This document shows, piece after piece, positions 7,918 to 7,946 of a DNA stretch of 9,473 nucleotides. Numbering within the stretch: position 1 is the first letter of the stretch; the number at the start of each line of letters is the position of its first letter. Source of the stretch: a virus (Duplodnaviria > Heunggongvirae > Uroviricota > Caudoviricetes); IMG/VR virus record IMGVR_UViG_2703718801_000021, positions 1 to 9,473 of that record. One strand, given 5' to 3'. The translations under genes and the position numbers were made by a program. Under the pieces are notes generated by a model that was given only the letters and a program-made list of their open reading frames with translations, had not been told where the DNA came from and did not search any database.

Positions 7918-7946
7918 ATAGTACGATGTGTACTTTACTGAGTCAA
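7918..7946 (-). promoter_or_regulatory. PL-like promoter with an operator-like 16-mer in the spacer
   Basis: Minus strand: -35 TTGACT (7946..7941), 17-nt spacer CAGTAAAGTACACATCG, -10 TACTAT (7923..7918). The spacer and -10 contain AAAGTACACATCGTAC, which matches 14 of 16 positions of a 16-mer in the PR region in mirrored orientation. Confidence 0.5.

Follow-up and report, generated by a model that had tools for sequence, protein, structure and literature searches.

The two similar 16-bp sequences that lie in inverted orientation on either side of the cI gene are very probably OL1 and OR1, in a lysis-lysogeny switch that is of the lambda type and belongs to the VT2-Sakai (Sp5) immunity group. 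The assignment is made from the sequence of the window, the whole stretch of 9,473 nucleotides that was analyzed here, and from comparisons with related phages. Operator dyads of one consensus are present in both OL and OR, and they overlap the predicted cores of PL, PR and PRM, the arrangement by which a lambdoid switch was recognized.

The window covers the left arm and the immunity region of a lambdoid prophage. The control region is flanked by the divergent cI (HTH and S24 peptidase domains) and cro genes, with N located leftward and cII rightward, and all four proteins have Pfam matches. The genes are arranged as follows.

75-1361, minus strand: int
1395-1649, minus strand: xis
4862-5335, minus strand: ssb
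5245-5880, minus strand: erf
7126-7326, minus strand: ral
7455-7799, minus strand: N antiterminator gene, the first in the PL operon (Pfam N_peptide, E = 5.8e-32)
8073-8732, minus strand: cI, repressor of 219 residues with an HTH_3 N-terminal domain and a Peptidase_S24 C-terminal domain
8844-9059, plus strand: cro, 71 residues, HTH_3
9201 onward, plus strand: cII

The list of open reading frames offers a TTG at 8774 as the start of cI, while the ATG at 8732 agrees with the relatives and with the position of PRM.

Residues 84-218 of CI are ~98% identical to the C-terminal domain of lambda CI (3bdn, 8gmu). The residues for self-cleavage can be aligned with those of lambda, including the Ala-Gly site and the catalytic Ser and Lys motifs (QAGMF, GNSMT and FKKL). 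The N-terminal domain is not lambda-like, and resembles instead that of the C2 repressor of ST64T, which is annotated as phage L c2-like. Judged from these alignments, CI combines the DNA-binding domain of a phage L-like repressor with the C-terminal domain of lambda CI, and so is a natural chimera. The chimeric nature of the VT2-Sakai CI is attributed by a later paper (PMC10742460) to Fattah et al. 2000.

The helix-turn-helix regions of CI and Cro are 35% identical. Their recognition helices, TQGGIGHW in CI and TQGAIGHW in Cro, are nearly identical, which would fit two proteins that read one set of operators. The segment of cI that encodes the helix-turn-helix (8641-8692, minus strand) also contains a 19-nt direct repeat, 79% identical and 33 nt apart, corresponding to the peptides ELGITQ and ELGMTQ.

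The transcription signals predicted around the two genes are listed below.

7918-7946, minus strand: PL, sigma-70-like, with -35 TTGACT (7946..7941), a 17-nt spacer and -10 TACTAT (7923..7918)
8789-8817, plus strand: PR, sigma-70-like, with -35 TTGCAT (8789-8794), a 17-nt spacer and -10 TATTAT (8812-8817)
8739-8768, minus strand: PRM, with TGGATG (8767..8762), a 17-nt spacer and AATAAT (8744..8739)
8740-8768, minus strand: PRM framed one base over, ATGGAT-17-TAATAA (8768..8740)
7826-7872, minus strand: nutL, boxA GGCTCTTTAAACA and boxB TGGCTGAAAAGCCA, at the canonical position after PL
9070-9115, plus strand: nutR, boxA CGCTCTTTGTAACAA and boxB TCGCTGAAAAGCGA, at the canonical position after cro
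8021-8042: terminator-like GC hairpin, T-runs on either strand, located between OL3 and the stop codon of cI

The predicted PL transcript carries nutL and N. For PR, the promoter scan gave the -35 as TTTGCA with an 18-nt spacer, one base leftward of the framing used here. The hairpin at 8021-8042 is probably the terminator of the PRM and PRE transcripts. The cII box (TTGC-N6-TTGC) is not enriched in the window, with 7 matches against 15 expected. One sequence with a single mismatch to this box, TTGCTGTAACTTGT (9210-9223, minus strand), lies within cII at its 5′ end, the place of the PRE -35 in lambda.

PL and PR have 21 of 29 in-register positions in common, and PRM in its shifted framing shares 18 of 29 with each of them. 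From this comparison PRM appears to be a third copy of the operator-plus-promoter module, one that is absent from the preliminary description of this DNA. A putative maintenance promoter is annotated at the place of PRM in the Stx1-converting phage AP005153. The -10 of PRM ends 6-7 nt before the cI ATG at 8732, which predicts a cI mRNA with no leader, as in lambda, with the PRM start at ~8732, the A of the ATG.

The preliminary description had paired AAAGTACACATCGTAC (7921-7936, minus strand) with AAAGTACATATCGTAT (8799-8814, plus strand) as matching at 14 of 16 positions, and had placed each in the spacer-to-minus-10 region of a promoter with a 17-nt spacer. Both sequences are found there with this identity, and the promoter scan and comparison located the two promoters, TTGACT-17-TACTAT for PL and TTGCAT-17-TATTAT for PR. 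With the repeat finder the inverted pair reaches 20 nt (7917-7936 and 8799-8818), of which 18 are complementary (90%). In a search of the whole window with up to three mismatches, 7921-7936 and 8799-8814 are the sole matches and there are no further copies. These two matches compare with 0.26 expected, and at least two were obtained in 6 of 200 shuffles, for a pattern that was derived from the same two sites that it then finds. An inverted match of 14/16 is by itself unremarkable, as a uniform-base calculation gives an expectation of ~10 such pairs over all 16-mer pairs in 9.5 kb. The pair is significant because of its position and the underlying dyad test, and not because of the 14/16 match as such.

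The dyad is a better search unit than the 16-mer, which misses the copy at OR3 and PRM (5 mismatches). The pattern AGTAC-N5-GTACT, with up to one mismatch, has 3 matches in the window against 0.10 expected, and this number was reached in 0 of 200 shuffles. The matches, at 7920-7934 (perfect), 8742-8756 and 8801-8815, all flank cI, and each overlaps a -10 hexamer. The first and the last of them bear out the GTAC-type dyad ends that had been noted for the 16-mers. Looser matching adds 7945-7959 (8/10), 7979-7993 (7/10) and 8768-8782 (7/10). De novo enumeration of dyads in both intergenic regions gave AGTAC-N5 and its inner register, TACA-N3-TGTA, at the top, and no other repeated dyad is prominent in OL or OR by this enumeration.

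Over the 12 half-sites of these six sites, the counts are A in 11/12, R in 10/12, T in 9/12, and A, C and R in 12/12 each. Together with the dyad matches, these counts lead to a predicted operator that is a 15-bp dyad, A-R-T-A-C-R-N3-Y-G-T-A-Y-T, present in six copies, OL1-3 and OR1-3. The predicted operators, with their matches to the ten positions of the dyad, are the following.

7920-7934: OL1, AGTACGATGTGTACT, 10/10, overlapping the PL spacer and the first 4 nt of the -10; core of the minus-strand 16-mer, and orthologue of a putative operator of AP005153 and of VT2-SA OL1
7945-7959: OL2, AATACAAAATGTTCT, 8/10, overlapping the PL -35 by 2 nt
7979-7993: OL3, ATAACGCTTTGTATT, 7/10, the weakest OL site; annotated in AP005153
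8742-8756: OR3, ATTACGCTCTGTACT, 9/10, overlapping the PRM spacer and -10
8768-8782: OR2, TGCACAAGATGTATT, 7/10, with a weak left half, abutting the PRM -35
8801-8815: OR1, AGTACATATCGTATT, 9/10, overlapping the PR spacer and the first 4 nt of the -10; core of the plus-strand 16-mer

The centers of the sites are at 7927 (OL1), 7952 (OL2), 7986 (OL3), 8749 (OR3), 8775 (OR2) and 8808 (OR1). The center-to-center spacing is 25 bp for OL1-OL2, 34 bp for OL2-OL3, 26 bp for OR3-OR2 and 33 bp for OR2-OR1, and the outer sites are 59 bp apart in both OL and OR. OL1 and OR1 are separated by 881 bp. The center of OR2 is located at about -43 from the predicted PRM start.

These results support the two 16-mers as marking the two best predicted repressor sites, OL1 and OR1, of a lambda-like switch. 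The preliminary description had regarded them as the primary CI/Cro operators. They are the two best dyad matches and correspond to the annotated OL1 and OR1 of the same immunity type, but there are six sites rather than two. The 16-mer also contains the core of the operator, but the predicted binding unit is the 15-bp dyad, which is offset from it (7920-7934 and 8801-8815); the 16-mer consists of the 15-bp site plus two flanking 5′ A's, minus the last T. The shared core was further thought to define the immunity specificity. The sites do appear to be operators of one immunity type, but the specificity is placed here in the half-site ARTACR and not in the shared center.

The consensus level of OR2 and OL3 (7/10) is reached ~20 times by chance in the window, and these two are putative operators on the strength of their conservation and position. 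Four other candidates were rejected. An alternative OR2 at ~24-25 bp from OR1, which would mirror OL2, corresponds to the 15-mer at 8776-8790, which has no half-site match by eye. An extra site on the 3′ side of the PR -10, hinted at by a direct repeat (8812-8826), has half-site matches at 4/10 positions. Two adjacent 8/10 dyad matches near xis (1958-1988), AGAACACTGAGTGCT and AGTGCTGCGAGTAAT, are to be read against ~4 expected by chance in the window by our own estimate. Finally, AAAACATGCCGTGCT (8967-8981), inside cro, outscores OR2 in the matrix scan, and the sequence occurs in phage Dewey too; its score is within the range of the shuffles and it is probably a chance match.

Relatives were collected by means of the CI N-terminal domain, giving 80 IMG/VR loci with an identical domain and several phage records. 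A scan of a one-genome-per-species collection with this domain gave few close relatives, and the variants for footprinting come from IMG/VR. The footprint set contains 34 distinct OR and 40 distinct OL sequences. Among these, 15% of the half-site columns vary, compared to 44% of the other non-coding columns and 50% of the three central ones. The difference has a Fisher p of 8e-5 for half-sites against other non-coding columns and of 0.004 against the centers, values that overstate independence as the rows are related. There are nine half-site changes. Five of them are C/T exchanges; three of these switch the fourth position between the allowed forms GTAC and GTAT, and one of the five, in OR2 beside a T-run, probably results from misalignment. 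Fixed half-sites together with drifting centers and between-site DNA are the pattern expected if the half-sites are contacted by a protein and the center is not.

The individual sites show this in different degrees. OR3 is nearly invariant among the 34 OR variants, with one half-site column and one center column varying, each in one variant. OL2 has conserved half-sites and a variable center among the relatives, and the left half of OL3 is variable. The spacing also differs in its constancy among phages with identical CI. OL1-OL2 (25 bp) and OR2-OR3 (26 bp) are invariant, whereas OR1-OR2 ranges over 32-35 bp through indels in a T-run, and OL2-OL3 over 33-35 bp, the long intervals shifting by indels in T/A-runs.

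Phage Dewey has the same immunity type and a complete genome of 40,352 bp. The six OL and OR sites are the top six scores of the half-site matrix in this genome. Since the matrix was trained on the sites of the window, their own ranks are partly circular, and the informative part is the lack of other high scorers. OL1 and OR1 are the two best dyad matches both in the window and in the whole Dewey genome. Recurrence of the motif at comparable frequency elsewhere, which would speak against operators, is therefore not seen, as the window has only two copies of the 16-mer and the six top scores of Dewey are its six operators.

The proteins and the operators both point to the VT2-Sakai (Sp5) immunity type for this switch, the same group as AP005153, Stx2 phage 1717 and phage 2851. 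Cro is identical to that of AP005153 at 71/71 residues (100%), and CI at 212/218 (97%), with residues 1-46 and the HTH identical. The N-terminal domain of the VT2-Sakai CI is 95% identical to that of the CI here. The AP005153 record contains three plus three 17-bp "putative operators" as well as a putative PR and PRM, all at orthologous places. The comparison with operators of known immunity groups, which had been suggested earlier, thus finds the sites of the window to be orthologous to six putative operators of the VT2-Sakai type. All six are identical to the published 17-mers at 15-16 of 17 positions, and the differences are in centers or flanks except for position 2 in the left half-site of OL3. 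The promoters and the OR3-OR2-OR1 layout are the same as well.

There are also differences from this group. The cI-cro DNA is only ~91-94% identical, and OR1-OR2 is 33 bp here compared to 32 bp there. VT2-Sakai-type Stx phages carry a block of ORFs of ~1.4 kb (b63/orf22 and others) between OL3 and cI that is absent here (7995-8072 of the window against 1094-2579 of the compared VT2-Sakai-type record). Because this block is missing, OL and OR are closer together, at a distance of ~0.9 kb compared to ~2.3 kb in the VT2-Sakai group. In addition, the window has erf, ssb, ral and a different int and xis, and is not the backbone of an stx phage.

The source cited for operators of the VT2-Sakai type is reportedly Fattah et al. 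2000, Genes Genet Syst 75:223. Yin et al. 2015 (PMC4587872, Table S5) give these six 17-mers for Sakai-type Stx2a phages, with the remark "same as operator sequences in E. coli O157:H7 Sakai", a citation of Fattah et al. 2000, and swapped labels for OL and OR. OR1-3 and OL1-3 of VT2-SA were synthesized as oligos (PMC10742460, Table S1), and EMSA on these VT2-Sakai oligos with lambda CI, rather than the cognate repressor, gave micromolar apparent Kd values (PMC10742460). Our literature search on VT2-Sakai/Sp5 found no binding of the cognate CI or Cro, no footprints and no transcript starts, the content of Fattah et al. 2000 being taken from the papers that cite it. There are apparently no published measurements of the affinities and cooperativity of the cognate CI on its operators for the VT2-Sakai type, in contrast to 933W.

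The six operators are already known as predictions, both published and annotated in GenBank, and the window adds a further carrier of this immunity type. The value of the sites as a discovery is limited, with the immunity group described in 2000-2003, annotated in GenBank and represented by oligos in a 2023 paper. The assignments of PL, PR, PRM, the six operators and the cI start at 8732 are useful for the annotation of this prophage. The immunity type also has medical relevance, as the same set of repressor and operators controls the induction of Sakai-type Stx2a phages.

The operator design extends to a wider family. In Salmonella phage ST64T the nucleotide identity is ~64%, the annotation of c2 and cro notes similarity to the phage L genes, and the repressor helix is TQGAIGHW. 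Its operators are AATACAAAATGTACT (found twice), AATACTATGTGTATG, ATTACGAGATGTATT, CACACATATTGTATT and AGTACGAAATGTATT, the last being fused to TATTAT as here. The C-terminal domain of its repressor, however, is not lambda-like. CI N-terminal domains with ~45-55% identity are found in phages of Erwinia and Klebsiella and in prophages of Providencia and Proteus, and a Vibrio relative also belongs to the family. Cro is homologous in these relatives as well. The Erwinia and Klebsiella phages and the Providencia and Proteus prophages have kept the TAC-N5-GTA dyads and the fusion of operator and -10, although A prevails at position 2 of the sites in Proteus, Providencia and Erwinia (GTATAC-type). 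The distant relatives have an OR3-(25-27)-OR2-(32-34)-OR1 layout with a weak PRM-proximal half of OR2. An OR2-like site, xxCAC-N5-GTATT, occurs at the same spacing in the ST64T, Erwinia and Proteus relatives. No convincing OR2 scored in SPN9CC and Vibrio phage Her, and the outer sites are 58-59 bp apart in these two, as here. This shared layout supports OR2, which is a poor match to the consensus, as a real site. From these comparisons the operator design predates the acquisition of the lambda-type C-terminal domain.

The overall organization of the switch is similar to that of lambda. The gene order N-PL/OL-cI-PRM/OR/PR-cro-cII, with nutL and nutR, is the same. There are three dyad operators on each side, one of which is positioned on the -10 of each early promoter, another operator abuts the PRM -35, and a leaderless cI is predicted from PRM. 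On the other hand, apart from the HTH fold the N-terminal domain of CI has no sequence relationship to that of lambda, and the Cro here belongs to HTH_3 and is entirely helical. The 15-bp ARTACR dyad is also different from the 17-bp operators of the TATCACCGC type. No sequence within two mismatches of the lambda operator consensus is present in the window, and the match of the protein to lambda is confined to the CI C-terminal domain, which places the switch outside the lambda immunity (imm lambda). Known operators of lambda, P22, 434 and 933W were considered as candidates, and are absent or, for a loose 434 pattern, at the level of chance. The operator spacings of lambda are ~24/20 bp in OL and ~24/23 bp in OR, compared to 25/34 and 33/26 bp here.

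In the proposed switch, CI dimers, and later Cro dimers, would recognize the 15-bp dyad through the HTH helix TQG(G/A)IGHW. At PL and PR, four bases of the -10 (TACTAT and TATTAT) also belong to the promoter-proximal half-site GTAnT. With the half-site fused to the -10 TAnTAT at PL, PR and PRM, a dimer bound on OL1, OR1 or OR3 would cover the spacer and the -10, excluding RNA polymerase. By analogy with lambda, CI at OR2, abutting the weak PRM -35, should stimulate PRM, while OR3 should turn PRM off once CI is abundant and should be bound by Cro before the other sites. The same analogy suggests that the lambda-type C-terminal domain would supply RecA-stimulated self-cleavage and probably also dimer-dimer contacts, including OL-OR looping over ~0.9 kb. 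The sites, their symmetry and conservation pattern, their placement relative to promoter-like hexamers and the protein domains are observed, and from these we infer binding, the order of occupancy, activation, cooperativity and the start sites in this scheme. Lambda-style cooperativity between OR1 and OR2 in particular is an assumption, given a spacing of 33 bp that is unlike that in lambda.

This spacing raises the question of whether CI and Cro could use the same six operators in a switch that is not wired like that of lambda, with intrinsic affinities only or with OL1-OL2 and OR2-OR3 (25-26 bp) as the cooperative pairs. OR1-OR2 is not only long but drifts over 32-35 bp, and OL1-OL2 and OR2-OR3 are fixed. 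However, the fixed pairs are explained equally well by promoter geometry, as in each pair one site lies over the -10 of PRM or PL and its partner at the -35. The 26/33 layout is common to the relatives, and the C-terminal domain of ST64T is not lambda-like, but that of the CI here is ~98% identical to lambda and includes the region that mediates pairwise cooperativity there. OR3 matches the consensus as well as OR1, and the 933W repressor is reported to be non-cooperative (PMC3317979); in comparison, OR2 is weak in every relative, the usual mark of a site that is filled cooperatively. Taken together, wiring of this other kind is unlikely. It is also doubtful that the lambda cooperativity and octamerization domain works here on a non-lambda layout inherited from the phage L-like family, with a rewired switch logic. 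If it did, with contacts between OR2 and OR3 and between OL1 and OL2, or with OL-OR looping only, this widespread type would be a natural domain-swap experiment, in which the lambda C-terminal domain proved capable of being rewired to a different switch logic.

The dyad is found at OL2, OL3 and OR2, where no -10 exists, as well as at the promoters. This argues against the view that the likeness of the two 16-mers is due to a duplicated promoter core (spacer and -10) without recognition by a repressor, repression then acting through other sequences. Such a duplication would account for the 18-21 of 29 positions shared by PL, PR and PRM over the whole promoter, beyond the dyad. But it would not be expected to spare the half-sites and let variation strike the dyad centers, which is unlike a promoter spacer. 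Nor would it preserve the dyads in distant relatives whose intergenic DNA is otherwise unalignable, and no other repeated dyad is prominent in OL or OR. A duplicated promoter core is highly improbable for these reasons, and the sites are better read as CI/Cro operators of a lambda-type switch.

Phage 933W has operators of the same geometry as the sites described here, and its early region is of the Stx-phage type, as here. Its annotated operators, oR1 CGTACTGAAAGTACG, oR2 AAAACTTTCAGTTCA and oR3 TGAACCATGAGTACG (OR at 5276-5346 of the compared record), are 15-bp rotationally symmetric sites with G-(T/A)-A-C at positions 2-5, as can be seen from oR1 and OL1. There are several differences, however. 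The CI proteins are ~20% identical, and an identity of 19.1% is given for Sp5 and 933W CI (bioRxiv 10.1101/2024.03.06.583675). In 933W, with half-sites of the CGAACT/CGTACT type, position 6 is T or C, whereas it is a purine in 12/12 half-sites here. The repressor of 933W is reported to accept every base at position 1 and to require G, A and C at positions 2, 4 and 5, and its binding is much weaker when position 6 is A or G (PMC3317979). Moreover, 933W has two OL sites, and its repressor is reported to bind without cooperativity (PMC3317979). No 933W-type match with up to two mismatches is present in OL or OR. By CI identity, position 6 and the operator search, the switch is not a member of the 933W immunity group.

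The chance is slimmest that a host or other-phage factor, such as a 933W-type repressor or a GTAC restriction-modification enzyme, recognizes the GTAC-ended dyads in place of the adjacent CI and Cro, because the 15-bp G(T/A)AC-N5-GT(A/T)C geometry shared with the 933W operators (oR1, CGTACTGAAAGTACG) is offset by the purine at position 6, poorly bound by the 933W repressor (PMC3317979), by the lack of 933W-type matches in OL and OR, and by the co-occurrence of the sites with this cI-cro pair in all the relatives examined.

For the CI/Cro operators of the VT2-Sakai type, we infer that position 6 may contribute to heteroimmunity between the two types of Stx phages. Discrimination from a co-resident 933W immunity may rest mainly on this position of the otherwise shared GTAC dyad.

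Prophages in E. coli O157:H7 strain 611 and O111:H- strain 110512 contain the immunity segment (7900-8850) at 100% identity, and DNA related to it is found in 1207 of 5426 complete E. coli genomes. The VT2-Sakai immunity type is found in non-Stx prophages too. As a whole, the window is a mosaic, and the best complete E. coli genome covers 88% of it at 97% identity, in 5 pieces.
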